Source: Bacteroidales bacterium (GTDB lineage Bacteria > Bacteroidota > Bacteroidia > Bacteroidales > UBA10428). From it: a stretch of 64,000 nucleotides of DNA. The position numbers were made by a program, and so were the translations under genes. Every line of letters begins with the position of its first letter. The stretch's first letter is position 1. Shown in pieces: positions 28,937 through 42,533 of this stretch. The stretch lies in NCBI GenBank assembly GCA_041737175.1, contig JBGSSF010000034.1, positions 143,606-207,605 of the forward strand. Reading direction: 5' to 3'. Under the pieces are notes generated by a model. It did no database searches. It saw only the letters and a list, made by a program, of their open reading frames with translations, and was not told the DNA's origin.

Positions 28937-30514
28937 ATGAAGAAGCAAAATGTTTTTATAATTCTGATTTCATTAATCGTAGCTCTCGGAGGATTTCTCC
29001 TGGGTTTTGACAGTGCAGTTATTTCCGGGGCGGTCCCTTTTTACAGGAATGTGTTTGGATTAGAAAGTGGTTCTTTATTGCTGGGTCTCTCAGTTTCTGC
29101 CATCATCTTTGGCGCTATGGGCGGAAATTTTATCGGGGGAATTCTGGCTGATATTTATGGCCGAAAGTTGGTGCTTATTATGACTGCCGCTCTCTTTACA
29201 TTTTGTGCCCTGGCTACTTCTTTAACCAGTAATCTTGCTTTTTTTATCATTGCCAGAATAATAGGAGGCTTGGGGGTTGGCATGTCAATCCTGGTCGCCC
29301 CGATGTACATTGCTGAAATTGCACCACGCGAAAAAAGGGGAACTTTGGTATCAATAAATCAGTTAAATATTGTATTGGGTATTTCGGTTGCCTATTTCTC
29401 CAATTATTTTATTTTACAGAAAGTTACCGATCCAAATCTGAACTGGAGATGGATGTTGGGAATCGGTGCTATACCTGCAGTACTCTATTTCCTGTTGTTG
29501 TATTTTATTCCACAGAGTCCCCGCTGGCTGGCATTGAAAAACAGGGATGAAGAGGCAAAGAGGACTTTGGTCAGTATTGGAGGTGAGGAATATGCAACAC
29601 AGGTATTCAAAGAAATAAAAGAAAATATCGGGAAATCTGAAAAACATTCCGGCATCAGCTTTCGCGAAGTGTTTACGAAGAAAATGACCCTAATATTGAT
29701 TATTGGGCTTGGTATTGCATTCTTTCAACAAATTACAGGGATAAATGCTATTTTTTATTACGCACCTATGATCTTCGGGATGGCTGGTGGTGGTCAGGAT
29801 GCGGCATTTGCCCAGGCCATAATATTAGGATTGACAAATGTAGTATTCACGGTTGTTGCCATGTTTCTGATTGACAGGTTGGGCAGAAAGCCCCTTTTGA
29901 TTATTGGGTCAATCGGGATTATGATATCCCTTTCGATCGCTGGATTTGCATTTAAATCAGCTAAGTATAGCATTTCAGATCAAGGACTTGTGAAGATTAT
30001 GCAGGAAGCTGCTAAAAACAAGGAAAGTGAACCGGCAGATCTTACAGTTTTGGAAAGTGGATTGAGAAATCTTACAAACACATCTTTCGATAAAGAATTG
30101 ACTTTTTTTCAAGATGTCAAAAAAGAAATTGGCGCCAAGAATTATAACAATTTTAAATCGGTTATCCTGGAAAACTCTATATCAATGAATGCTATTCTTG
30201 TATTAATTGGATTGATTTTATATGTTGCCTCATTTGCTATTTCTCTTGGACCAGTGATGTGGACTTTGCTTTCGGAGATATTTCCCAACAAGATGAGGGG
30301 AGTTATGATCTCAATAGTCGGTACATGGAACTCTGTAGTTAGTTTCTCCGTTGCTACGGTTTTTCCTAAAGAACTTGAGGTTATCGGTTCAGGTTATACT
30401 TTTCTGATTTATGCTTTTTTAGGATTTCTAACCCTGTTATTTGTTTTGAAATTTGTGCCTGAAACAAAGGGTAAATCATTGGAAGAACTCGAGACCATTT
30501 TGGTGAGACAATAG
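28937..30514 (+). CDS. Sugar-porter-family MFS transporter (XylE/GLUT type) with an inserted hydrophilic loop
   Basis: 525 aa. Motifs are GFDSAVISGA, GRK, PQSPRWL and PETKGKSLEELE. About 75 extra hydrophilic residues lie between predicted TM9 and TM10. Confidence 0.85.
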   Translation: MKKQNVFIILISLIVALGGFLLGFDSAVISGAVPFYRNVFGLESGSLLLGLSVSAIIFGAMGGNFIGGILADIYGRKLVLIMTAALFTFCALATSLTSNLAFFIIARIIGGLGVGMSILVAPMYIAEIAPREKRGTLVSINQLNIVLGISVAYFSNYFILQKVTDPNLNWRWMLGIGAIPAVLYFLLLYFIPQSPRWLALKNRDEEAKRTLVSIGGEEYATQVFKEIKENIGKSEKHSGISFREVFTKKMTLILIIGLGIAFFQQITGINAIFYYAPMIFGMAGGGQDAAFAQAIILGLTNVVFTVVAMFLIDRLGRKPLLIIGSIGIMISLSIAGFAFKSAKYSISDQGLVKIMQEAAKNKESEPADLTVLESGLRNLTNTSFDKELTFFQDVKKEIGAKNYNNFKSVILENSISMNAILVLIGLILYVASFAISLGPVMWTLLSEIFPNKMRGVMISIVGTWNSVVSFSVATVFPKELEVIGSGYTFLIYAFLGFLTLLFVLKFVPETKGKSLEELETILVRQ

Positions 30515-30532: not shown

Positions 30533-31441
30533 ATGGCAATAGTTTTAAAGAACAGTATTCTTTGCCTGACTATTGAAGAACCAGGTCAGGTTTATAGTAA
30601 TTCACGGTTCGATTGGACTGGAAATATTTCTCAGGTTTTATTTGAGAACAAATTTATTTTCTGTTCGGTAGAGACAGCCAAAGGATTTGATCTTAAACGG
30701 CATGGTCAGGGTTTGTATAACGAATTTGGAATAACCAAACCGATAGGATACGAAGATTGTTTCGTGGGTGAGAAATTCCCTAAAATAGGCGTTGGACTGC
30801 TAACCAGAAAAAGTAACGATGCCTATCATTTTCTTGAAGCATACGAGATAGATCCTTTTGAAATTCAAATAGAAAAGGGAGAGGAATGGATAAAGTATAC
30901 GGTTTTTCCAAAAGATTGCAGAGGGTACAGTACAAAACTAATCAAGAAGATCAAACTCTCCGGTAATTCATTTACCCTTGATTATGAGTTGGAAAATACA
31001 GGAACAAGGAAAATACAAACGAATGAATACTGTCATAATTTTATGGCCGTTAACAGGTCGGATATTAATGAACACTATACGCTTAGGGTGCCATGCAAAA
31101 TAATTAAACCGTCATTTATGTTCGAAGCATTAAACCCTGAGAATGCCGTTGTGCTGAATGCAAACTCTGTAAATTTTAAATTCTCACCTGAAAAAGATTT
31201 TTTCTTTAGCCCTTTGACTGAATTTCAATCGGAAAATGGGGAATGGGAAATTACCCATGACGGCATGGGTATCGGAATGAAAGAAAGTACCGATTTCGTG
31301 CCTGAAATGATGAATGTATGGGGATGCAAACATGTACTCAGTCCGGAATTGTTCATTGGCATCGATCTGGATCCCGGACATAAACTAAAATGGCGGAGAA
31401 CCTACAAGTTCTATTATCTATTGCCGGATAGGCAACTGTGA
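30533..31441 (+). CDS. Hypothetical cytoplasmic protein (possibly mutarotase-like beta-sandwich)
   Basis: 302 aa with no signal peptide. It is tightly linked to the flanking genes (18-nt and 27-nt gaps). I recognise no diagnostic motif with confidence. Confidence 0.4.
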   Translation: MAIVLKNSILCLTIEEPGQVYSNSRFDWTGNISQVLFENKFIFCSVETAKGFDLKRHGQGLYNEFGITKPIGYEDCFVGEKFPKIGVGLLTRKSNDAYHFLEAYEIDPFEIQIEKGEEWIKYTVFPKDCRGYSTKLIKKIKLSGNSFTLDYELENTGTRKIQTNEYCHNFMAVNRSDINEHYTLRVPCKIIKPSFMFEALNPENAVVLNANSVNFKFSPEKDFFFSPLTEFQSENGEWEITHDGMGIGMKESTDFVPEMMNVWGCKHVLSPELFIGIDLDPGHKLKWRRTYKFYYLLPDRQL

Positions 31442-31468: not shown

Positions 31469-34400
31469 ATGGCTGAAAATAAATTATTGATCGGTAAGAA
31501 TGTATTCCAAACATGGGACAAAGAAGTCAAAGGTAAATTTGTGACAATTGATGGGGAAGATTTCTATGAAATCAGGAATTTTGACTCGATGTTGCCTTTT
31601 TTTATGAGTCTTGCAAGCGATTCTGACCACTGGATGTTTATTTCCAGCACCGGTGGTTTGTCAGCAGGAAGGATCAACCCCGAAAGCGCACTTTTCCCGT
31701 ATTATACAGATGATAAACTTCAGGAATCAGCAGAGACAACCGGGAGCAAATCAATTTTCAGGGTATTGTCAGAAGATAAAGAATATTTATGGGAGCCTTT
31801 TTCTGAGAGGTATGACGGTGTGTACAAAACCGAAAGGAACCTGTATAAAAATACTTGCGGCAATAAGCTCATTTTCGAAGAAAACAACCTCGATTTGGGA
31901 TTGTCCTTTCGGTATGGCTGGATGAACTCTGATCATTTCGGTTGGATCAGGAAAAGTATCCTGGTGAACAAATCGGTGACATCAGTCAGGGTGGAACTAA
32001 TGGATGGCCTGCAAAACCTGTTGCCATATGGAGTTGAGAGGTTTATGCAAAATCAGTTTTCCACCTTGCTCGACGGTTATAAAAAATCCGAGCTTGTGAA
32101 GGAATATTCGCTCGGATTGTTCCGGCTCGAATCTATTCCTGTTGATAAAGCCGAACCAAGCGAAGCACTAAAGGTTACAACTGTTTGGACTTGCGGCCTC
32201 GAAAAAAATATTTTTCTGTTAAGTTCAAGACAACTGGGACAGTTCAGAAAGGGAAAAAAAGTTGTTGAAGAGCAGGAATCAAAAGGAGTGAAAGGGGCAT
32301 TCTTTGCAAACGCCAAAATTAAACTTAATGCCGGCGAAAGCAAGGTATGGTATTTTGCTGCCGAGGTCAACCAGGATTCGGTGAAAGTGAATAACCTGAT
32401 TGATTTTTTGTCCAGGACCAAGGATAAAATGGATGCGTTAGAAAAGAATATTCAGGAAGGCACCCTTAACCTGAAAGTTATTGTTGCCGATGCAGATGGT
32501 ATTCAGAATTCATCCGACAAACTTGTGGTTTCAAGACACTTTTCGAATGTTTTGTTCAATGTCATGCGGGGGGGCATATTCAGCGAGGGTTATTCAATTG
32601 ATAAAAGTGATTTCCTCAAGCATGTCAAACACTTTAATAAACAAGTGCTGGAAGGGCACCGAAAACTCTTCGATCAGTTACCTGACACCCTCAAATATGA
32701 AGAGCTCGATAAAATAATAACCAAAGAGGGTGATGAAGATCTTCATCGTCTGTTTCTTGAATATCTGCCGCTTACCTTCAGCCGAAGGCATGGCGATCCA
32801 AGCCGCCCGTGGAACCTTTTTTCAATAAACATTAAAGATGTAAGCGGCAATAAGCTGCTATATTACCAGGGTAATTGGCGCGATATTTTCCAGAATTGGG
32901 AGGCATTGGCATTGTCTTATCCCGGTTATATAAGCGGTATGATCGCCAAGTTCGTGAATGCTTCATCGGCCGATGGATACAATCCGTATCGTGTAACCCG
33001 CGATGGAATAGACTGGGAAGTGCCTGAACCAGGTAATCCGTTCTCAAATATCGGCTATTGGGGCGATCATCAGATAATTTATCTGCTAAAATTGCTGGAG
33101 GTATCGGAGAAATATTTTCCGGGACATCTTAATTCATGGCTGGTCAAGGATATGTTTGCATATGCCAATATTCCTTACCGGATTAAATCCTATCAGGAGA
33201 TTGTTGATAACCCGCATGATTCTATTGACTTTGATTTTGATGCACATCATAAAATAGATGAAGATGTGGCCCGGATAGGAGCCGATGGCAAATTACTTCT
33301 TGATAAATCGGGTTTGGTATTTAAGGTTAATCTTACCGAAAAAATTCTGGCCCCGCTGTTATCCAAGCTTAGCAATTTTATTCCCGAGGCGGGCATTTGG
33401 ATGAATACCTTGCGTCCCGAATGGAACGATGCCAACAATGCACTGGTCGGGTATGGAGTATCCATGGTTACACTCTATTATATGAGGCGGTTCATTCATT
33501 TTATTGCCGGGTTGTTGTCGGCATTTTCTCATACAAGCCTTGAGATTACAGAGGAAATGGCAGACTTTCTTTCGGCAATTGATGATGCCCTGAAAGACCA
33601 TGAATCATTGCTCAACGAGGGATTCAATGACACGCAGCGTAAGCTGTTGGCAGATCGACTTGGCAATGCAGGAAGTGAATTCAGAGCTAAAGCATACAAG
33701 GGATTCTCCGGTAAAAAGGCATCTGTAAAGAAGCAGTACCTCATTAAATTTCTCAAAACAGCACAAGCTTTTATAGATCAGAGTATTGCTGCAAATAAAA
33801 GAACCGATAAACTCTACAATGCTTATAATCTATTGACTATCGGCGACAACGGCTTTTCAATCAGGCATTTGTATGAGATGCTTGAAGGACAGGTTTCAGT
33901 GCTGAGTTCCGGCAAACTTTCACCCGAAGAGTCGCTGGAAGTGCTCGATACCTTGAGAAATAGCAAGTTGTACCGTGCGGATCAGGAAAGCTATATTCTG
34001 TATCCGGACAAGAGATTGCCATGGTTTCTTGAAAAGAATATAGTACCCCCTGAAGATGTTAAGAGAATTCCACTGTTGTCGAAATTGATTGAAATGGGCG
34101 ATACAAGTATAATTGCCAGGGATACCAGGGGCCAGTACCATTTTAATGGTACATTCAATAATGCAGGTTTTCTGAAAAAAGCCTTGCAGAAGCTGACTGA
34201 TAGTGCAGTTGTAAAAGTTATGCCGGCGGAGATGAAACAGGTAATGGCGGTATATGAGAAAATATTTGATCATCAATCTTTTACTGGTAGGTCAGGTACT
34301 TTCTACAAGTATGAAGGGCTTGGTTCGATATACTGGCATATGGTTTCAAAGCTATTGCTCGCGGTTGGTGAAAACATTGAACTAGCCAGAAAAGGGGGTG

Positions 34401-34894
34401 CCACCGAAGATATCCTGCGTAAGCTGGCGGATCATTATGCAGAGATTAAAGAAGGCATTGGAGTTCATAAAACGCCTGATAAATATGGGGCATTCCCGAT
34501 TGATCCATACTCCCATACCCCCCGGATGGCAGGGGTGCAGCAGCCGGGTATGACCGGTCAGGTGAAAGAAGATGTTATCAGCCGGTTCTTTGAGCTTGGC
34601 CTGGTTGTAAATAACGGACAAATATCATTTAATCCCGTCGTTCTGAAAAAGAATGAATATATTCTCCCGGGAACAAAAGATTCCCATGGCCATTCTGTGC
34701 CGCACCTTTATTTTACTTACTGCAAAGTTCAGGTAATTTACCTGCTTGACGGTAAAGATGGAATAGACCTGGTTTTTAACAATGGGAATTCTTTAAATAT
34801 CCAGGGATCTGCTATTGACAAAGTAAACAGCCATTCTATTTTTAATCGGGAAGGAAAAATAAGTAAAATACATGTTCATCTGACCCTTGAATAA
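31469..34894 (+). CDS. Large uncharacterised protein, putative GH94-superfamily-like glycan phosphorylase/hydrolase
   Basis: 1141 aa, cytoplasmic, with no signal peptide. WRDIFQNW (32876-32899) and RPEWNDANNAL (EWND at 33419-33430) resemble my recollection of the RDxxQD and DWND motifs of GH94-type (alpha/alpha)6 phosphorylases. The size is similar to GH149/GH161 beta-1,3-glucan phosphorylases. The family assignment is unverified. Confidence 0.35.
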   Translation: MAENKLLIGKNVFQTWDKEVKGKFVTIDGEDFYEIRNFDSMLPFFMSLASDSDHWMFISSTGGLSAGRINPESALFPYYTDDKLQESAETTGSKSIFRVLSEDKEYLWEPFSERYDGVYKTERNLYKNTCGNKLIFEENNLDLGLSFRYGWMNSDHFGWIRKSILVNKSVTSVRVELMDGLQNLLPYGVERFMQNQFSTLLDGYKKSELVKEYSLGLFRLESIPVDKAEPSEALKVTTVWTCGLEKNIFLLSSRQLGQFRKGKKVVEEQESKGVKGAFFANAKIKLNAGESKVWYFAAEVNQDSVKVNNLIDFLSRTKDKMDALEKNIQEGTLNLKVIVADADGIQNSSDKLVVSRHFSNVLFNVMRGGIFSEGYSIDKSDFLKHVKHFNKQVLEGHRKLFDQLPDTLKYEELDKIITKEGDEDLHRLFLEYLPLTFSRRHGDPSRPWNLFSINIKDVSGNKLLYYQGNWRDIFQNWEALALSYPGYISGMIAKFVNASSADGYNPYRVTRDGIDWEVPEPGNPFSNIGYWGDHQIIYLLKLLEVSEKYFPGHLNSWLVKDMFAYANIPYRIKSYQEIVDNPHDSIDFDFDAHHKIDEDVARIGADGKLLLDKSGLVFKVNLTEKILAPLLSKLSNFIPEAGIWMNTLRPEWNDANNALVGYGVSMVTLYYMRRFIHFIAGLLSAFSHTSLEITEEMADFLSAIDDALKDHESLLNEGFNDTQRKLLADRLGNAGSEFRAKAYKGFSGKKASVKKQYLIKFLKTAQAFIDQSIAANKRTDKLYNAYNLLTIGDNGFSIRHLYEMLEGQVSVLSSGKLSPEESLEVLDTLRNSKLYRADQESYILYPDKRLPWFLEKNIVPPEDVKRIPLLSKLIEMGDTSIIARDTRGQYHFNGTFNNAGFLKKALQKLTDSAVVKVMPAEMKQVMAVYEKIFDHQSFTGRSGTFYKYEGLGSIYWHMVSKLLLAVGENIELARKGGATEDILRKLADHYAEIKEGIGVHKTPDKYGAFPIDPYSHTPRMAGVQQPGMTGQVKEDVISRFFELGLVVNNGQISFNPVVLKKNEYILPGTKDSHGHSVPHLYFTYCKVQVIYLLDGKDGIDLVFNNGNSLNIQGSAIDKVNSHSIFNREGKISKIHVHLTLE

Positions 34895-34901
34895 TAAGTT
34901 A

Positions 34902-35255
34902 ATGATGGATACCAGGGATATAACATATATCGTCAGGGGACGGATCTGGATAGAGGTTCACCGTAAAACCCTGTTGGGTGAGGGCAAGGTCCATTTGCTG
35001 AGGAAAACAGCTGAACACGGCTCCCTGCGAAAAGCAGCAAAAGAAATGAATCTTTCTTACAGAAAAGCCTGGTACAGCCTGTACCAGATGAATAATGCCG
35101 CCGGCATGCCGCTGATAGTTCTTAAACGGGGAGGCAGACAAGGCGGTATTGCCCAGATTACCCCTTATGGGAAAGAAATTCTTGGAAAATTTGAAAAAGC
35201 GGAAGAGGAATTCATTGCTTTTTTGGATGCGCAGACCAGGCGTCTGAATGTATAA
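34902..35255 (+). CDS. ModE-N-terminal-like winged-helix regulator (no Mop/TOBE domains)
   Basis: The track start is TTG 34887, so ATG 34902 is preferred. GSLRKAAKEMNLSYRKAWYSLYQMN ... GGRQGGIAQITPYGKEIL parallels E. coli ModE GSISQGAKDAGISYKSAWDAINEMN ... GGKGGGGAVLTRYGQRL. Confidence 0.7.
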   Translation: MMDTRDITYIVRGRIWIEVHRKTLLGEGKVHLLRKTAEHGSLRKAAKEMNLSYRKAWYSLYQMNNAAGMPLIVLKRGGRQGGIAQITPYGKEILGKFEKAEEEFIAFLDAQTRRLNV

Positions 35256-35367
35256 CTCTTCTGATGTAAACAAAGATTTTGTCGTCTTAGGCGGAATTTA
35301 TATCTTCACAAACGTTATTCCTTAATCGAATAACGAAGTATCCTTTACTACCATTTTGAAAATCAGA

Positions 35368-37347
35368 ATGAAAAGAGTTCCATTACTACTCCTATTTTTT
35401 ACCCTGTCTTTTAACTGCCTCGCACAGCAGGAAACAGATACGGCAGCATATCCGGTGAAATCGTTCCAGCTTGGAGAAGTCATCATAACCGGGACCATTG
35501 ACAGGGAAATGATAGGGACGAATGAGCTGCACAGATATAATGCCCACGATGTAAGTTCTTCACTTGGCATACTGCCTTCCATTACCCTAAGCAACCTGGG
35601 TCCTCGCAACGAAAGTGCCGTTTACCTGAGAGGTTTCGACATTCGCAGTATACCTGTGTTTGTTGATGGCATTCCTGTGTATGTGCCTTATGATGGTTAT
35701 ATGGATCTGGCCCGTTTTACCACCTACGACGTATCCAAAATAGATGTTTCCAAAGGATTTTCTTCCATGATGTACGGTGCCAATACCCTCGGAGGGGCCA
35801 TCAACCTGGTCGGCATGAAACCATCCTATCCATTGGAAATCAGCGCCAAAGCCGGTATCATGAGCGGCAATGGTTATGATGCCCGGCTCAACCTGGGCAG
35901 CAAAATGGGGAAGGCCTATATTCAATCGGGTTTCTCCATAATGAACAGGGAGTTTGTTCCCTTATCGGCGGATTTTGACACTTCGGCGCTTGAAAATAAC
36001 CGCAGTCGCGACAATTCTTACCGTAAAGACATTAAAGGAAGCCTAAAAATTGGTTATGCACCCAATCCTACTGATGAATACAGCATTAACTATATTATTT
36101 CCCACGGGAGCAAAGGAAACCCGGTTTATCTCGGGGATGACAACACGATCAGGGTCCGCTATTGGGATTGGCCTTACTGGGATAAACAAAGCGTTTATTT
36201 GATTTCTAAAACAGCCATCGGACAGAAATCCTATCTGAAAGCACGTTTGTTTTTCGACGAATTCAAGAATAAGCTCAGGAGTTATGATGATAATAGCTAC
36301 ACCACACAGCTAAAAGGATATTCCTTTAACAGCTACTTCAAGGATTATACACTGGGTGGCAATCTTGAATTCTCAAGAGATGCGGGCAAAAATAACACCC
36401 TCAGATTCTCGGCACACCTGAAAAACGACAACCACAGCGAGCACAATGAAGGTGAACCTGCCATACACATTGCCGACAATACTGTTTCAATCAGCTTTGA
36501 AAGTGTTTACAAACCGGTCAGTAGACTTACCTTAATACCTGGTGTGGGTTACAATGTCAGGTACAGCTTAAAAGCAGAGAATTATAATTCCGCTGATCAG
36601 ACCATAACTGAATTGCCCGGTAATTCAAATGATGCATTCAATGCGCAACTGGCTGCCTATTATCAGTTATCGAATGCTTTTTCAGCAAATTTCAATGTCG
36701 CCTATAAAAACCGTTTTGCTACCATGAAAGATCGGTATTCATACCGTCTTGGCGTAGCCATTCCGAATCCCGATCTAACATCAGAATCAGCACTTAACCT
36801 TGAACTGGCGGCCAACCTGATTGTGGCTGAAAAACTTAAACTGCGGCCTGAATTATTTTACAGCCGCCTCTACAACACCATTCAGCCGGTGGACAATGTG
36901 CAGGATGACCTGTCACAGATGCAGAATACCGGTTCATCGCGATTTGTTGGTGCTGATCTCAGTCTGATTTACCAGCCGTATAAGAGTTTCAGGCTCTATG
37001 CGGTTTATTCTTATATTCAACGTGATAACCTGAGCAATCCGGAACTTTTATTCACTGATGTTCCGGAAAACAAAGTATTTGTTTCTGCAGAATTCAGTTT
37101 TGCCGAAAAACTTTCCGTCCAATTATCTGGTGAATATAATTCCGAACGCATCAATGCCAGTGATGGTTCAAGAATATCACCTGCCTTTGCCATTGCCAAT
37201 GCGGAAATTTCGTACCGCTTTGCCGGATTTATGGATGCAGAATTCGGTGTAAACAATCTACTCGATAATAACTATACCCTGGATGAAGGATACCCCGAAA
37301 TGGGCCGGAATCTTTATGCTTCATTGCATTTCAATTTCCATAAATGA
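35368..37347 (+). CDS. TonB-dependent outer-membrane receptor (small, BtuB/siderophore-receptor size)
   Basis: ATG 35368 gives MKRVPLLLLFFTLSFNCLAQQ. Plug motifs are VIITG, SVYLRGF, PVFVDGIPV and KGFSSMMYGANTLGGAINLV. The C-terminus is a beta-barrel ending in an aromatic-rich terminal strand (SLHFNFHK). Confidence 0.9.
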   Translation: MKRVPLLLLFFTLSFNCLAQQETDTAAYPVKSFQLGEVIITGTIDREMIGTNELHRYNAHDVSSSLGILPSITLSNLGPRNESAVYLRGFDIRSIPVFVDGIPVYVPYDGYMDLARFTTYDVSKIDVSKGFSSMMYGANTLGGAINLVGMKPSYPLEISAKAGIMSGNGYDARLNLGSKMGKAYIQSGFSIMNREFVPLSADFDTSALENNRSRDNSYRKDIKGSLKIGYAPNPTDEYSINYIISHGSKGNPVYLGDDNTIRVRYWDWPYWDKQSVYLISKTAIGQKSYLKARLFFDEFKNKLRSYDDNSYTTQLKGYSFNSYFKDYTLGGNLEFSRDAGKNNTLRFSAHLKNDNHSEHNEGEPAIHIADNTVSISFESVYKPVSRLTLIPGVGYNVRYSLKAENYNSADQTITELPGNSNDAFNAQLAAYYQLSNAFSANFNVAYKNRFATMKDRYSYRLGVAIPNPDLTSESALNLELAANLIVAEKLKLRPELFYSRLYNTIQPVDNVQDDLSQMQNTGSSRFVGADLSLIYQPYKSFRLYAVYSYIQRDNLSNPELLFTDVPENKVFVSAEFSFAEKLSVQLSGEYNSERINASDGSRISPAFAIANAEISYRFAGFMDAEFGVNNLLDNNYTLDEGYPEMGRNLYASLHFNFHK

Positions 37348-39101
37348 ACGACAGGTATTTACTCAATGATGTCTGGTTGAAGGCATCTATTTTGGGCGCC
37401 AACTGGGCAGCATCCGAAATCATACTGGGAAGTTTTCTGCACAATCTGAATATTCCTTTCAAAGGAAATATACTCACTGCAATCGGGCTTATCCTGATGA
37501 TCTCGGTGGCCTATAAATGGAAGGACAGGGGGCTGTTCTGGCGCAGCGGACTGATCTGCGCCCTGATGAAAACCATGTCGCCAAGCGCTGTTCTTTTGGG
37601 ACCCATGGTGGCCATTATTATGGAAGCTTTATTGCTTGATATTTCCGTCAGGCTGGTGGGAAGAAACCTGGCCGGCTTTTTTTTGGGTTCCGCCCTGGCT
37701 ATGTCATGGATTCTGACACAGAAAATCATCAACTATATCATCTACTATGGAAACAATATCGTTGAAATATATGCAAACGTTCTGAAATATGCCGAACAAC
37801 AATTAAATATACTATTCGATATTTTTTGGCTTCCGGTGATGATTTTACTAGCCGTATATATTCTTTTCGGCCTGCTTGCTGCAGTGGTTGGAGCAAAGAT
37901 GGCGAGGAGCATAGCCGGCAATCAGGATATCAGAGGACAGGTACCCCAGAAACGGCCTGTTGAGTTGCAGAACAGCGAGTATGCTGATTTTCCTTATTCA
38001 ATAAATTGGCTCATACTGAGCTTCGCAGGACTTGTTACGGCTTTCATTTTGATTAACAAAAGTCCGATGTACATATGGATACCTGTGTCGGTGCTTTTGG
38101 TCACTTTATGGGTCTCGCGTTATAAACGGGCAATGCGTCAGCTTTCACGTCCCAGGTTCTGGATTTTCTTTGTGGTGATTACTGTTTTATCTGCCGTGTT
38201 AATAACGTCACTTAATGGCGGTCAGCGTCATTGGACAGACGGACTGATCATTGGTCTGCAGATGAATTTCAGAGCAGCTGTTGTTATCTTTGGCTTTTCG
38301 GCATTGGGAACAGAATTGTACAATCCCGTAATCAGAAATTTTTTAGCGAAAACAGTATTCAAACAACTTCCGGCTGCCCTTGAACTGGCATTTGAATCGC
38401 TCCCGTTTGTGGTTGCCAACCTGCCGGATGCAAAGACCTTCATTAAGAAACCTGCGGATGTAATAGCACTTTTAATAAGTTATACGGAGGATCGTTTCAA
38501 CACACTGAAAAAACAGCAGCAGGCATCGGTTTTTATCATTACTGGTGATGTTTCTGAAGGGAAAACAGGTTTTTTGGTTGAGCTTCTCCATAGATTACGG
38601 AACAAAGACTTATTGATCGGAGGCTTTTATGCGCCCCGCATTATGCTGGATGGAAAAACGCTGGGTTATGACCTGGTCTTTGTTGAGACTGAAAATAAAT
38701 TGCGTTTTTTGAGTATAAAGCAAAATGGAGAGCCCGGTGGAATTGGAAAATATGAAATCGATACTGAGACCCTGGAACAGGGCAAAAGGATACTTTCCAC
38801 TGAAAACTGCAGGAAGAAAGATGTCGTAATCATCGATGAGATCGGCAGGCTCGAACTGCAGGGGTGTGGTTGGAGCAGTTGTCTTGAAAACCTGCTTGCC
38901 AAACCGGATTTATGCTTGATAATCACCGTAAGGAAGGACATTCTGAACCTTGTTCTTGAAAAATATGAAATCAGAAATCCCGCCATTTATAGTGTTTACG
39001 AAAACAACCTGCACAAGGCAGAAACATCGATTGTGGACAGGATATTATGTCACAAAGAGGAAAAGCAAACTGCGAACTTTAGGCTTGGTAATATAACATA
39101 A
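37344..39101 (+). CDS. Polytopic membrane protein fused to a C-terminal THEP1/DUF2478-like P-loop NTPase
   Basis: 585 aa, with an ATGA overlap with the TBDR stop. About 390 aa contain many hydrophobic helices. These are followed by Walker A GDVSEGKTG (38544-38570), a G-F/Y segment (IGGFYAPR) and Walker B VVIIDEIGRLE. Confidence 0.6.
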   Translation: MNDRYLLNDVWLKASILGANWAASEIILGSFLHNLNIPFKGNILTAIGLILMISVAYKWKDRGLFWRSGLICALMKTMSPSAVLLGPMVAIIMEALLLDISVRLVGRNLAGFFLGSALAMSWILTQKIINYIIYYGNNIVEIYANVLKYAEQQLNILFDIFWLPVMILLAVYILFGLLAAVVGAKMARSIAGNQDIRGQVPQKRPVELQNSEYADFPYSINWLILSFAGLVTAFILINKSPMYIWIPVSVLLVTLWVSRYKRAMRQLSRPRFWIFFVVITVLSAVLITSLNGGQRHWTDGLIIGLQMNFRAAVVIFGFSALGTELYNPVIRNFLAKTVFKQLPAALELAFESLPFVVANLPDAKTFIKKPADVIALLISYTEDRFNTLKKQQQASVFIITGDVSEGKTGFLVELLHRLRNKDLLIGGFYAPRIMLDGKTLGYDLVFVETENKLRFLSIKQNGEPGGIGKYEIDTETLEQGKRILSTENCRKKDVVIIDEIGRLELQGCGWSSCLENLLAKPDLCLIITVRKDILNLVLEKYEIRNPAIYSVYENNLHKAETSIVDRILCHKEEKQTANFRLGNIT

Positions 39102-39178: not shown

Positions 39179-40519
39179 ATGGAAAGAAATAAGGGTGACC
39201 AGAATGCACATTTGAAGAAAAAAATCCGTGAGCTTGAAAAACAGGTCAGGGAACATGCCACTGAACATAAACAGACTGAAGAACAGCTATTGAAGAAAAA
39301 CAAGGACCTGGCCAGACTTTTCAATATGAGTCTTCATCTCCTTGAATCATTGGACAGGAAGGAAGTGCTGCTAAAAATTGTTGAAAATGCAGCAAATCTG
39401 GTTGGTACAGATACAAGTGCCATTTACTTTGTAAAGGGAAATGACCTGTTCCTCGAAGCCACATTCCCCCCGCTTCCTGCAGAATACCCGGAAGAATTCA
39501 GATATGCAAAATTGGATAACCATCCCTATATTAGGGCTGTCATTGAATCCCGGACGACAATCATCGTCAACGATGTATCGAAGGCCACGTTAACTGAGGA
39601 AGAAAGACTGATCACAAGAATAAGAAATCTGGGATCACTCGTCTATATCCCTTTGCTGGTCCAGAAGAAAGTGGAAGGGGTTATCATTCTGGGAACGATA
39701 GGACGAATACATGAATTTGAACAGGTAGAAATTGATCTGTTCAGCACCTTCTCAAACATCACTTCTCTGGCGCTGGAAAATTCTTATTTATTCGGGAATT
39801 TAAGAATTGCCATGGAGAAAGCTGAAGAGAGCAACCACCTCAAAACCGCTTTTCTGCATAATATATCTCATGAAATCAGAACACCTCTGAATGCTATCAT
39901 CGGCTTTTCAGGATTTCTCGTGCAGGAAGGAATCTCGCCCAAATTGAAAAGGAATTACATGGACATCATATCGCAAAGCAACAACCAGTTGCTTTCCATC
40001 ATCGATGATATTCTGAACATTTCCCAGATCGAAGCCGGCCAGGTCATTATCAACGAAACTACTGCAGATCTGAATGTTATTCTGAATAACCTGTACCGCC
40101 AATATCTTCCGCTGGCCGCGAAAAAAAAGCTTGGATTCAGTGTGAACAATAATTTTCCGGGTCACAAAGGCAATGTGAGGATTGATGAAAACAAAGTGAT
40201 CGGTATCTTTGCCAACCTCCTGAACAATGCCTTTAAATTTACGCACAAGGGATCAGTCGAGATGGGATGTACATTGCAGGATGATTGGATTGAATTTTTT
40301 GTCTCGGATACCGGGATTGGCATTCCCGAGAATGAACATGCCAGAATTTTTGACCGGTTTTACCAGATCGATAAATCCGATATGGGAACTTATGGGGGCA
40401 TGGGTCTGGGTCTTTCAATCAGTGCGGCCTATGTGGATATGCTTGGCGGGCAGTTCCTGCTTGATTCTGTCCCTGGGAAAGGGTCCAGGTTTGCTTTTAG
40501 GTTACCAGTCAATAAGTAA
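39179..40519 (+). CDS. Cytoplasmic sensor histidine kinase (coiled coil + GAF-like + HisKA + HATPase_c)
   Basis: 446 aa. The H-box is SHEIRTPLNAI, the N-box LLNNAFKFT, G1 DTGIGI and G2 GGMGLGLS. There are no TM segments and no adjacent response regulator. Confidence 0.85.
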   Translation: MERNKGDQNAHLKKKIRELEKQVREHATEHKQTEEQLLKKNKDLARLFNMSLHLLESLDRKEVLLKIVENAANLVGTDTSAIYFVKGNDLFLEATFPPLPAEYPEEFRYAKLDNHPYIRAVIESRTTIIVNDVSKATLTEEERLITRIRNLGSLVYIPLLVQKKVEGVIILGTIGRIHEFEQVEIDLFSTFSNITSLALENSYLFGNLRIAMEKAEESNHLKTAFLHNISHEIRTPLNAIIGFSGFLVQEGISPKLKRNYMDIISQSNNQLLSIIDDILNISQIEAGQVIINETTADLNVILNNLYRQYLPLAAKKKLGFSVNNNFPGHKGNVRIDENKVIGIFANLLNNAFKFTHKGSVEMGCTLQDDWIEFFVSDTGIGIPENEHARIFDRFYQIDKSDMGTYGGMGLGLSISAAYVDMLGGQFLLDSVPGKGSRFAFRLPVNK

Positions 40520-41327: not shown

Positions 41328-42533
41328 CTACCTGATCTTCGAACCCTTCACAGCAAAGAAAGTAATGTAAGCGTAATAAATAAACAGGCAGCAGATAGCG
41401 ACAACCAGACCGATGCTTTTTTGAATGCCACCCATCATGATGGGCAATATGGCTGCTCCGATGACAGAGGTGGCAATAACACCTGATCCCACCTTGGAAT
41501 GCGGGCCGAGATCCTCAAGCGCCAGGTTGTATATGCAGGGCCACATGATTGAATGCATCAAGCCGGTTCCGAGGAAAAGCACCAGCGAAATTGTAGCCAT
41601 ATTCATGTTGCCCAGAACAAGTGATAAGAGCAGCATTACTGCACCTGCTATGGCACAGAAACTCAGGATCTGGCTCGCTGAGTATTTACGAAGGATAAAA
41701 ATCCCTAAAATACGGCCGATCATCAATCCCAACCAATAATAAGCCAACAGCTTGGTTCGCATTTCGCCGTCAAAAGTGAAGCCCAGTTTGGCCGAATAAT
41801 CAGCAAAGAAACTGGGAATTCCGATCTCAACGCCCATGTATACAAAGATTGCCAGTGAACCCAGCCACATATGGGGATACTTGTAGGCGCTTGACTTAAA
41901 CTTTTTCGCTACTCCTTCGGCAGATTCATCACCCTTAATCTCAGGCAGGTGAAGGAAAAACATGATGACCACAATGACCAGTGTCGCAATGCCGATACCG
42001 GCAAAAGGACCTTGCACGGTTTTCGGATCTGTGGCACCCGGTGTATTGGATGATACAATCAGCATGGAAACAAATATGGGAGCAATCACCGTTGCCAGTG
42101 AATTAAGCGCGTTGGTAAGTGTCAGCCGGCTGGCGGCAGTTTCCGGTTTACCCAGGGCGTTTACATAAGGATTGGCAGCCACCTGCAGCAGAACAACACC
42201 GATGGCAAATACCGATACAGCACTCAGGAATCCATAGTATCCTGCGGCAACACCGGGGATGCATAGGAAGAAACCGGCACTGACAAGGGCAAGACCAGCC
42301 AGCACACCATTTTTATAACCTATTCTGTTCAGCAAGTACCCAACCGGGATGGATAAAATGTAAGCGCCGTAGAAAAAAGTATTGGGCAATTGTTTTTCGA
42401 CTTCATTGAGATTGAATGCATCTTTCAGGTAATCGATCAACGAGTTGTTCATGGTAGTGATGAAGCCAAAAAGGAAAAACAGGGAGGCCATCACGATCAA
42501 CGGGAACAGGAATTTTGAGTTTTCTTTTTGCAT
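41328..42533 (-). CDS. MFS glucose/galactose (FucP/GluP-type) transporter
   Basis: 401 aa and polytopic. The N-terminal LFFLFGFITTMNNSLI pattern is typical of FucP/GluP transporters. It is the last gene of the galK-galM cluster. Confidence 0.8.
   Translation of the reverse strand: MQKENSKFLFPLIVMASLFFLFGFITTMNNSLIDYLKDAFNLNEVEKQLPNTFFYGAYILSIPVGYLLNRIGYKNGVLAGLALVSAGFFLCIPGVAAGYYGFLSAVSVFAIGVVLLQVAANPYVNALGKPETAASRLTLTNALNSLATVIAPIFVSMLIVSSNTPGATDPKTVQGPFAGIGIATLVIVVIMFFLHLPEIKGDESAEGVAKKFKSSAYKYPHMWLGSLAIFVYMGVEIGIPSFFADYSAKLGFTFDGEMRTKLLAYYWLGLMIGRILGIFILRKYSASQILSFCAIAGAVMLLLSLVLGNMNMATISLVLFLGTGLMHSIMWPCIYNLALEDLGPHSKVGSGVIATSVIGAAILPIMMGGIQKSIGLVVAICCLFIYYAYITFFAVKGSKIR

Follow-up and report, generated by a model that had tools for sequence, protein, structure and literature searches.

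The window analysed here is a 64,000-nucleotide (nt) stretch of the genome of a Bacteroidales bacterium (lineage UBA10428), and the subject of this study is a three-gene cluster within it that encodes a ModE-type regulator, a TonB-dependent receptor and a fusion protein in which a polytopic membrane module is joined to a P-loop nucleoside triphosphatase (NTPase). The whole analysis is comparative and computational, and an absence means throughout that something was not found with the models used. Window proteins were matched against Pfam at E<=0.01 and against NCBIfam models; genes at related loci (L numbers; genomes carry G numbers and contigs C numbers) are longest-open-reading-frame (ORF) calls. 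The cluster has the following features (aa, amino acids; ECF, energy-coupling factor).

34902..35255, + strand: ModE-N-type winged-helix regulator, 117 aa (matches to TIGR00637, PDB 2ijl and Escherichia coli ModE)
35313..35335, no strand assigned: candidate operator, perfect inverted repeat CGTTATTC-N7-GAATAACG, in the regulator-receptor spacer
35356..37347, + strand: TonB-dependent outer-membrane receptor, 663 aa (Plug 2.3e-16; receptor models over residues 48-661)
37344..39101, + strand: fusion protein, 585 aa, its start overlapping the receptor stop (ATGA)
37356..37934, + strand: predicted ECF S-component-like domain of the fusion, residues about 5-197 (solved-chain fold matches to the predicted model)
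37971..38519, + strand: putative EcfT/CbiQ-like domain, residues 210-392 (moderate support only, from 5d3m_D and 5x41_Q)
38532..39020, + strand: THEP1/NTPase_1-type P-loop NTPase, residues 397-559 (PF03266; Walker A 38544-38567, Walker B 38823-38840)

The original prediction of a 585-aa fusion, with a membrane part of about 390 aa and a C-terminal NTPase carrying both Walker motifs, is borne out by the translation (Walker A, GDVSEGKTG; Walker B, VVIIDEIGRLE), and the ATGA overlap proposed at 37344-37347 is present in the sequence, where the receptor's TGA (37345-37347) overlaps the ATG of the fusion gene (37344-37346). The NTPase had been described as of the THEP1/DUF2478 type. Because only the PF03266 score exceeds its cut-off (74.2 bits against 23.9), the domain belongs to THEP1/NTPase_1 and not to DUF2478 (PF10649, 19.6 bits, below the cut-off of 22.3, which some relatives pass). 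A profile search with the NTPase retrieved 1ye8 (2.8e-14) and 2i3b (6.1e-13), and Foldseek with the full model against the PDB found the same two structures (2i3b, 5e-6; 1ye8, 2e-5) and nothing beyond the NTPase. G406, K407, T408, D498 and E499 are invariant in 21 sequences. ABC_tran matches were found in three of 53 family members, only at E>=0.033.

Residues 1-390 of the fusion matched no Pfam or NCBIfam model, and the membrane part of the 53 family members matched no Pfam family. A model of residues 1-392, built on a 53-sequence alignment of fused and unfused relatives, reached a predicted local distance difference test score of 88.9 and a predicted template modelling (TM) score of 0.84. 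With this membrane-only model Foldseek returned nothing from the PDB at E<=0.001, the only rows being like the major facilitator superfamily with TM about 0.15; the assignment of the two membrane domains therefore rests on VIA-align, run against 48,161 solved chains. For residues about 5-197, S-components of ECF importers made up 13 of the 16 best solved-chain rows (Z 12.8 to 6.8, 142-173 residues aligned), among them 5edl_A (Z 12.8), 3p5n_B (RibU, 9.1), 4huq_S (8.6), 4dve_A (BioY, 8.4) and further FolT, PanT, a Ni/Co component, ThiT and BtuM. Agreement among so many subfamilies makes this assignment a strong one, and an S-component fold is thus well supported for the modelled region, whose most conserved residues are E25, G29, L32, H33, P38, G41 and P87.

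The whole span of residues 210-392 was matched only by EcfT 5d3m_D (Z 7.0, 177 residues) and CbiQ 5x41_Q (Z 5.3, 176 residues); unrelated helical proteins gave similar Z scores over shorter spans. PF02361 was matched neither by the window fusion nor by the 53 family members, and a lead from the protein atlas to CbiQ was weak (0.78). The model thus weakly supports an EcfT/CbiQ-like domain. M307, R310 and A311 are invariant in this domain. The coupling-helix motif of EcfT is Ala-Arg-Gly, and by analogy the three residues could play its role. The membrane part had been suggested to be EcfT/CbiQ-like or new: a T-like match stands, weakly, for residues 210-392, while residues 5-197 are better described as an S-component and no Pfam family covers either. 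A check for some unrelated known function found none and gave an importer-type fold instead. The fusion is best described as S plus T plus THEP1-type NTPase, and it is not a member of the ECF family because the defining ATP-binding cassette (ABC) ATPases are lacking.

ECF importers (for folate and pantothenate, and CbiMNQO; PDB 5d3m, 4rfs, 5x3x) have the same S-component fold as predicted for residues 5-197, and EcfT/CbiQ are the best whole-domain matches for residues 210-392. Their S and T components are encoded by separate genes, as in some relatives of the fusion, whereas the window protein carries both in one chain; they are driven by ABC ATPases, in place of which a single fused THEP1/NTPase_1 domain is found here. 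ECF importers usually carry vitamins and cofactor precursors. The system here differs from them also in being paired with a TonB-dependent receptor and in lacking any sequence-level relation (no Pfam match in 53 members; hhalign to CbiQ, 0.15%). The solitary S-component-like cobalamin transporter BtuM works in Gram-negative bacteria without the classical ECF module. Its structure (PDB 8ovv) matches the S-component fold with Z 6.8, but it is without the T-like domain and the NTPase, its conserved residues differ, and it has no molybdenum link. THEP1 and the human cancer-related NTPase (1ye8, 2i3b; PF03266) agree with the third domain in sequence and fold, including Walker A and the DEIG-x-x-E signature of Walker B. 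The members described so far are small soluble proteins, whereas the domain of the fusion is attached to a polytopic membrane module, in an order that is permuted in relatives. In contrast to ModABC, WtpABC and TupABC, the cluster encodes no binding protein, no permease of the binding-protein-dependent type and no ABC ATPase, as had been noted for permease and binding protein from the start. Two long hydrophobic ORFs nearby (28937-30514 and 41328-42533) appear permease-like on reading; they lie among sugar-metabolism genes and no family scan was made of them.

The regulator ORF has alternative starts at 34887 and 34902 and ends at 35255 (+ strand). It matches Pfam HTH_1 (8e-9), and its residues 25-104 match NCBIfam TIGR00637, the ModE repressor domain (2e-19; 69.5 bits, below the cut-off of 98.5). 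The closest solved relative is 2ijl, a 135-aa "molybdenum-binding transcriptional repressor" (2.7e-15) that likewise consists of ModE-N only, and E. coli ModE (1o7l/1b9m) is matched at 2.5e-9. Neither Mop nor TOBE, the molybdate-binding domains of ModE, was found by Pfam at E<=0.01, and only positions 17-89 of 263 aligned with NF007957. Judged by these matches the regulator corresponds to the ModE DNA-binding domain without the Mop/TOBE molybdate sensor, in agreement with the original prediction, and its grouping with ModE-type proteins holds. ModE-N-only proteins have been noted in Desulfovibrio, with a sensing mechanism described as undetermined (PMC545781). Regulator-like ORFs occur in 16 of the 80 metagenome loci described below, as well as in L001 and L002.

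A search of the regulator-receptor spacer for a ModE-type palindrome, suggested by the original prediction, yielded the perfect repeat at 35313-35335. The pattern CGTTAT-N9-15-ATAACG occurs once in the 64-kb window, where 0.02 matches are expected, and at only two exact sites in the 4.32-Mb genome. Among the fetched loci it is present in L001, L002, L044, L074, L078, L086, L088, L089, L099 and L102; in these ten it is confined to the gap that separates the regulator gene from the gene for the receptor or DUF364, some having two copies, and it was found in none of 113 other loci. All nine related loci that hold both regulator and receptor carry the palindrome. The consensus reported for E. coli ModE is ATCGNTATATA-N6-TATATANCGAT, with which the candidate operator has in common a CG-N-TAT...ATA-N-CG outline and a span of 23-24 bp (PMC545781).

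The other exact site in the genome, a perfect 24-bp palindrome CGTTATTAACAATTGTTAATAACG (G000 C22:59198; L124 position 6199), lies 82 bp upstream of a gene for a 414-aa pyridoxal-phosphate (PLP) enzyme of Cys/Met metabolism (Cys_Met_Meta_PP); the regulator may have a second target here, or the match may be due to chance. At L026 a cystathionine-gamma-synthase-family gene is divergent beside the fusion gene. Directly upstream of the regulator lies a gene for a GH149 beta-1,3-glucan phosphorylase (31469-34894; NF058639, 1643.8 bits), with a 302-aa partner of no family at 30533-31441. Read-through from this sugar cluster is possible, because the regulator ORF starts 8 nt past the stop of the GH149 gene.

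The receptor, which had been called a small TonB-dependent receptor, has a plug domain above the cut-off (PF07715, 2.3e-16, 60.6 bits), and its residues 48-661 align with TonB-dependent receptor models, TIGR01785 among them, all below their cut-offs. The beta-barrel model PF00593 was not reported for the window receptor at E<=0.01 and was matched by the orthologues in L002 and L044. The true start is more likely ATG 35368 (MKRVPLLLLFF...) than TTG 35356, so that the gap seen earlier between regulator and receptor exists and measures about 112 nt, not 100. Receptor orthologues of 45-94% identity precede the fusion gene in L001, in L002 and in ten metagenome loci. Because only 10 of the 80 metagenome loci have an orthologous receptor (>=40% identity), the receptor is accessory. 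In two distant genomes (L036, L038) a split membrane protein lies beside a receptor of 28% identity.

Relatives of the fusion number at least 1874 in a set of 5.8 billion proteins. The membrane part alone matched 1048 clusters at 50% identity, 293 of them at E<=1e-30, with fused forms of about 570 aa and unfused forms of about 390-410 aa. Split forms in Bacteroidota comprise a pair of 244 and 156 aa and a separate 202-aa S protein with a 182-aa T protein; the 182-aa protein of L036 is homologous to fusion residues 263-379 (probability 94%). Permuted fusions of 468-501 aa, with the NTPase first and an S-like domain behind it, occur at L032-L035 and L037 (genomes G010, G020, G200, G189 and G153). 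That the NTPase and the membrane module are joined in more than one order is good evidence of joint function, and the occurrence of S and T without an NTPase gives the membrane module a role of its own. The contexts of the permuted relatives include the phosphotransferase-system genes for HPr and EI, pstSCAB-phoU, and an aldehyde ferredoxin oxidoreductase (AFOR).

Synteny of the three genes in other genomes was examined, and the order regulator-receptor-fusion recurs in L001 (fusion 88% identical), in L002 (58%) and in seven metagenome loci (L044, L074, L086, L088, L089, L099, L102). A scan of metagenome contigs confirmed 548 fusion relatives, of which 80 loci were kept. Their commonest partner is a DUF4213+DUF364 protein (hereafter DUF364), present in 53 of the 80. 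Of the 71 loci whose upstream sequence extends for 900 bp or more, 41 have its gene immediately before the fusion gene in the same orientation. The most complete arrangement, regulator-receptor-DUF364-fusion, is seen in L074, L086, L088, L089 and L099, while the clusters of the window, L001, L002, L044 and L102 are without DUF364. DUF364 was not found anywhere in the window's genome and is present in one of 46 isolate genomes; it belongs to the metagenome clade and not to the window operon. In four loci the DUF364-fusion pair is flanked by a gene for the ferrous-iron transporter FeoB, which in L092, L093 and L094 follows the pair immediately in convergent orientation and in L076 precedes it by about 4 kb. 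In the window the fusion gene is followed after 78 nt by a gene (39179-40519) for a cytoplasmic GAF-HisKA-HATPase histidine kinase. This kinase was weighed as a candidate for the missing sensor and set aside: L001 retains it, more distant loci do not, and among the 80 loci only three show kinase matches, all weak.

In unrelated lineages the neighbourhoods of the family repeatedly contain molybdenum (Mo) and tungsten (W) enzymes and genes that act late on their cofactor:

L044: regulator, receptor, fusion, MobA-like protein, PhsA-like enzyme, iron-sulfur subunit, NrfD, two YedE, rhodanese
L048, L051: fusion, then dmsABC
L085: xdhC, DUF364, fusion, followed closely by a MobA-like gene in opposite orientation
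L090: DUF364, fusion, then a 973-aa xanthine-dehydrogenase-family enzyme
L078: a NifX-type FeMo-cofactor-binding-family gene just downstream
L024, L025, L028: fusion divergent from genes for ThrC-like, SsnA (TIGR03314 above cut-off) and YgfK-like proteins, with a xanthine-dehydrogenase-family gene of about 860 aa alongside
L029, L030: a PhsA-like enzyme 5-6 kb away and two YedE; L030 also rhodanese and MobA
L036, L038: napA-napD-napGH-like genes, then S, T and receptor
L037: adjoins a tungsten-type AFOR

In six genomes (G059, G265, G325, G173, G337, G097) family matches lie 2-10 kb from molybdoenzyme matches, distances being read by eye from the match tables. Of the metagenome loci, 26 extend for 4 kb or more to either side; nine of these carry a MobA-like, dimethyl sulfoxide (DMSO)-reductase-family, xanthine-dehydrogenase-family, XdhC or NifX-like gene and 17 carry none. 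A Pfam scan of 251 neighbour proteins at related loci gave six MobA-like proteins and one XdhC, and no MoeA, MoaA, MoaC, MoaE or MogA.

The distribution of the family was examined in a census of 401 Bacteroidota genomes, a sample of the phylum, with a 17-sequence S-domain profile as probe for the fusion family (41/401 positive), MoeA_N as marker of cofactor synthesis (212/401) and MoCoBD_1 at E<=1e-30 as marker for a xanthine-dehydrogenase-family enzyme (127/401). The family occurs in 19 of the 24 genomes with MoCoBD_1 in which MoeA_N was not found, as against 12 of the 103 with both markers and 10 of the 274 in which MoCoBD_1 was not found. A Fisher test of this contrast overstates the case, since related genomes are not independent. 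With taxonomic family f33 left out, the figures among MoCoBD_1 genomes are 11/15 MoeA-negative and 4/94 MoeA-positive. The same contrast appears inside f42 (3/3 versus 1/4), f26 (2/2 versus 0/6), f28 (1/1 versus 1/9) and f7 (1/2 versus 0/8), the counts within these families and f33 being made by hand from the census tables. In f37 all five MoeA-lacking genomes carry the family and three with MoeA do not, but those three are also without MoCoBD_1. MoaC was matched in 3 of 31 MoeA-negative genomes examined, compared with 13 of 15 MoeA-positive ones, and the MoaA C-terminal domain (Mob_synth_C) in none of 11 MoeA-negative genomes; these counts back a true lack of the cofactor pathway, as far as it can be read from sequence. 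G141 and G010 have MoeA_N but gave no match to MoaC or to the MoaA C-terminal domain; such a partial pathway would be consistent with the import of a pterin without metal and its later loading with Mo.

The window genome, 97.6% complete, fits this pattern. MoeA_N, Mob_synth_C, MoaE and AFOR_C were not found in it, its only MoCF_biosynth match is CinA, and the ModA-type binding protein PF13531 was not found either, although 14 of 14 control genomes were positive. It encodes one PhsA-like enzyme with NrfD, two YedE/TsuA-like half-proteins, rhodanese, an S-adenosylmethionine methyltransferase and DsrE (C7:~116200-123000, L042), and a MobA-like gene lies on contig 34. The gene set on contig 7 is the one that is contiguous with the regulator-receptor-fusion cluster in L044, whose PhsA-like protein is 63% identical to that of the window genome.

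Taken together, the three genes probably form an uptake route tied to molybdoenzymes. Our preferred explanation, to which we give a probability of about 0.5, is TonB-dependent uptake of preformed molybdenum cofactor (Moco) or its pterin. A molybdate- or tungstate-related ligand or metallophore had been proposed at first; the molybdenum link has become much stronger, and the pattern argues for a preformed cofactor over molybdate or tungstate. The proposal that the fusion is a non-canonical, nucleotide-dependent inner-membrane partner of the receptor gains support from the importer-type fold and the THEP1 NTPase.

On the basis of gene structure, predicted folds, operator conservation, gene neighbourhoods and phyletic distribution, we infer DNA binding, transport direction, energy coupling and ligand identity as follows. 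The ModE-type regulator would bind the palindrome before the receptor gene and control the operon. The receptor would carry the ligand across the outer membrane and the fusion would carry it across the inner membrane, the S-component-like domain binding it within the membrane and the T-like domain coupling the S-like domain to the fused THEP1-type NTPase, which would stand in for the two ABC ATPases of an ECF transporter. The likeliest ligand is a preformed molybdopterin (MPT)-type cofactor (Moco, Mo-MPT or a close pterin form), which MobA-like or XdhC-type proteins would complete and deliver to molybdoenzymes in organisms unable to make the cofactor.

Several points weigh against uptake of a preformed cofactor. 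We know of no mechanism by which a THEP1 NTPase would drive an S/T module, and Moco is chemically unstable when free. For the T-like domain the fold matches are weak (Z 7.0 and 5.3), and hhalign against the CbiQ of the same genome gave only 0.15%. Part of the overall enrichment is phylogenetic, because f33 shows no contrast, the family being present in 8/9 MoeA-negative and 8/9 MoeA-positive genomes with MoCoBD_1. Five of the 24 auxotroph-like genomes are without the family, and seven family-positive genomes have neither MoCoBD_1 nor MoeA, three of the five checked showing no strong PF00384 enzyme. MoaE (PF02391) was matched in only 5 of 46 genomes, missing most MoeA-positive ones; because this search is uninformative, the absence of the pathway is judged from MoeA_N, MoaC and Mob_synth_C. 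The window genome itself has a lone MoaC (C29:241552-241944, L041), 34 kb past the window end among unrelated neighbours, which may be a relic or have another role. Finally, the commonest partner, DUF364, has been tied to molybdate/tungstate ABC transporters and not to Moco (PMC2954201; bioRxiv 10.1101/2024.03.05.583561).

The main alternative, though less likely, is import of molybdate, tungstate, a thio-form or a metallophore-bound metal by a new importer that replaces ModABC, WtpABC or TupABC, with DUF364, where present, handling the metal in the cytoplasm. DUF364, found in 53 of the 80 loci, is reported beside molybdate/tungstate transporters and to show cofitness with nifH in a modABC operon (PMC2954201; bioRxiv 10.1101/2024.03.05.583561). 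The ModE type of the regulator, the ModE-like outline of the operator and the lack of a detected ModA-type binding protein in the window genome point the same way, and the relative at L034 follows pstSCAB-phoU, an oxyanion system. A cell that lacks MoeA and a pterin pathway has no use for imported molybdate, however, and the family is enriched in genomes negative in searches for MoeA_N, MoaC and the MoaA C-terminal domain; none of the 251 neighbour proteins belongs to core cofactor synthesis, but the late-acting MobA-like and XdhC proteins are present. To our knowledge the solved S-components bind vitamins, cofactor precursors or Ni/Co and not oxyanions, and the titles of the matched S-component structures agree with such ligands. 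Import of a preformed cofactor is favoured because an importer of molybdate or tungstate should co-occur with MoeA and the pterin pathway and the family does the opposite, because the family accompanies late-acting proteins (MobA/MocA-like, XdhC), which imported Mo-MPT would still require, and because S-components typically bind vitamins and cofactor precursors.

Import of some other cofactor or metal (iron, a sulfur or selenium compound, another pterin or a flavin), with only an indirect link to molybdenum, is improbable. The neighbours do include YedE/TsuA-like proteins, rhodanese, SsnA, YgfK-like proteins, Cys/Met PLP enzymes, methyltransferases and FeoB, the sole other exact operator-like palindrome of the genome precedes the Cys_Met_Meta_PP gene by 82 bp, and a flavin or pterin derivative has been proposed as ligand in the paper on the DUF364 structure. 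The sulfur and selenium genes, however, themselves form part of clusters for molybdoenzymes (operons of Phs/Psr type, and the SsnA/YgfK cluster, which includes a xanthine-dehydrogenase-family enzyme); what every context shares is a Mo/W enzyme or a gene for late cofactor handling, and the association with the loss of MoeA and MoaC would be left unexplained. It is equally doubtful that the fusion is no transporter and instead a membrane-anchored maturation or sensing factor, such as a MobB-like nucleotide-dependent adaptor handing cofactor to membrane or twin-arginine-exported molybdoenzymes: there are weak MobB (PF03205) cross-matches in 9 of 53 family members (best E 2e-4; for L023 3e-5, below the cut-off), the NTPase is not of a transporter type, and 70 of the 80 metagenome loci have no orthologous receptor, but the S-component fold serves ligand binding in transport, the membrane protein gene adjoins a receptor gene or is translationally coupled to one in several distant lineages, and S and T exist without any NTPase, hence with a role of their own.

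The idea that TonB-dependent uptake linked to a ModE-like regulator and an NTPase fusion is an undescribed system has stood: in the literature searched we found no description of the fusion family, of an ECF-like module with a THEP1 NTPase, or of bacterial Moco uptake. Reviews present Moco as made de novo and not taken up, with Caenorhabditis elegans as the only known exception (PMC9026282). Dietary Moco salvage in C. elegans likewise uses cofactor made by others (PMC7849362; PMC9026282); it differs in that the organism is a eukaryote and the Moco is taken up protein-bound. Several hundred prokaryotes have been reported to possess "orphan molybdoproteins" of the DMSO-reductase or xanthine-oxidase family without the cofactor pathway or a known Mo transporter, for which undiscovered biosynthetic components or metal-free enzymes were proposed (PMC6147048). 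Our claim that the cluster represents the first bacterial system for uptake of preformed Moco or molybdopterin, and with it a new class of transporter, its ECF-like S+T module powered by a THEP1-type NTPase and served in some lineages by a dedicated TonB-dependent receptor, is a tentative one, at slightly less than even odds. If the ligand were molybdate or tungstate, the system would still be a new kind of Mo/W importer. The family marks orphan-molybdoenzyme genomes in Bacteroidota and sits in their molybdoenzyme, MobA and XdhC clusters, so that the puzzle of these enzymes becomes directly testable. If true, uptake of a preformed cofactor would show that an ECF-type toppling module can couple to a non-ABC NTPase, would give THEP1-type NTPases their first physiological setting, and would explain how molybdoenzymes can work in bacteria without cofactor synthesis or a known Mo transporter.

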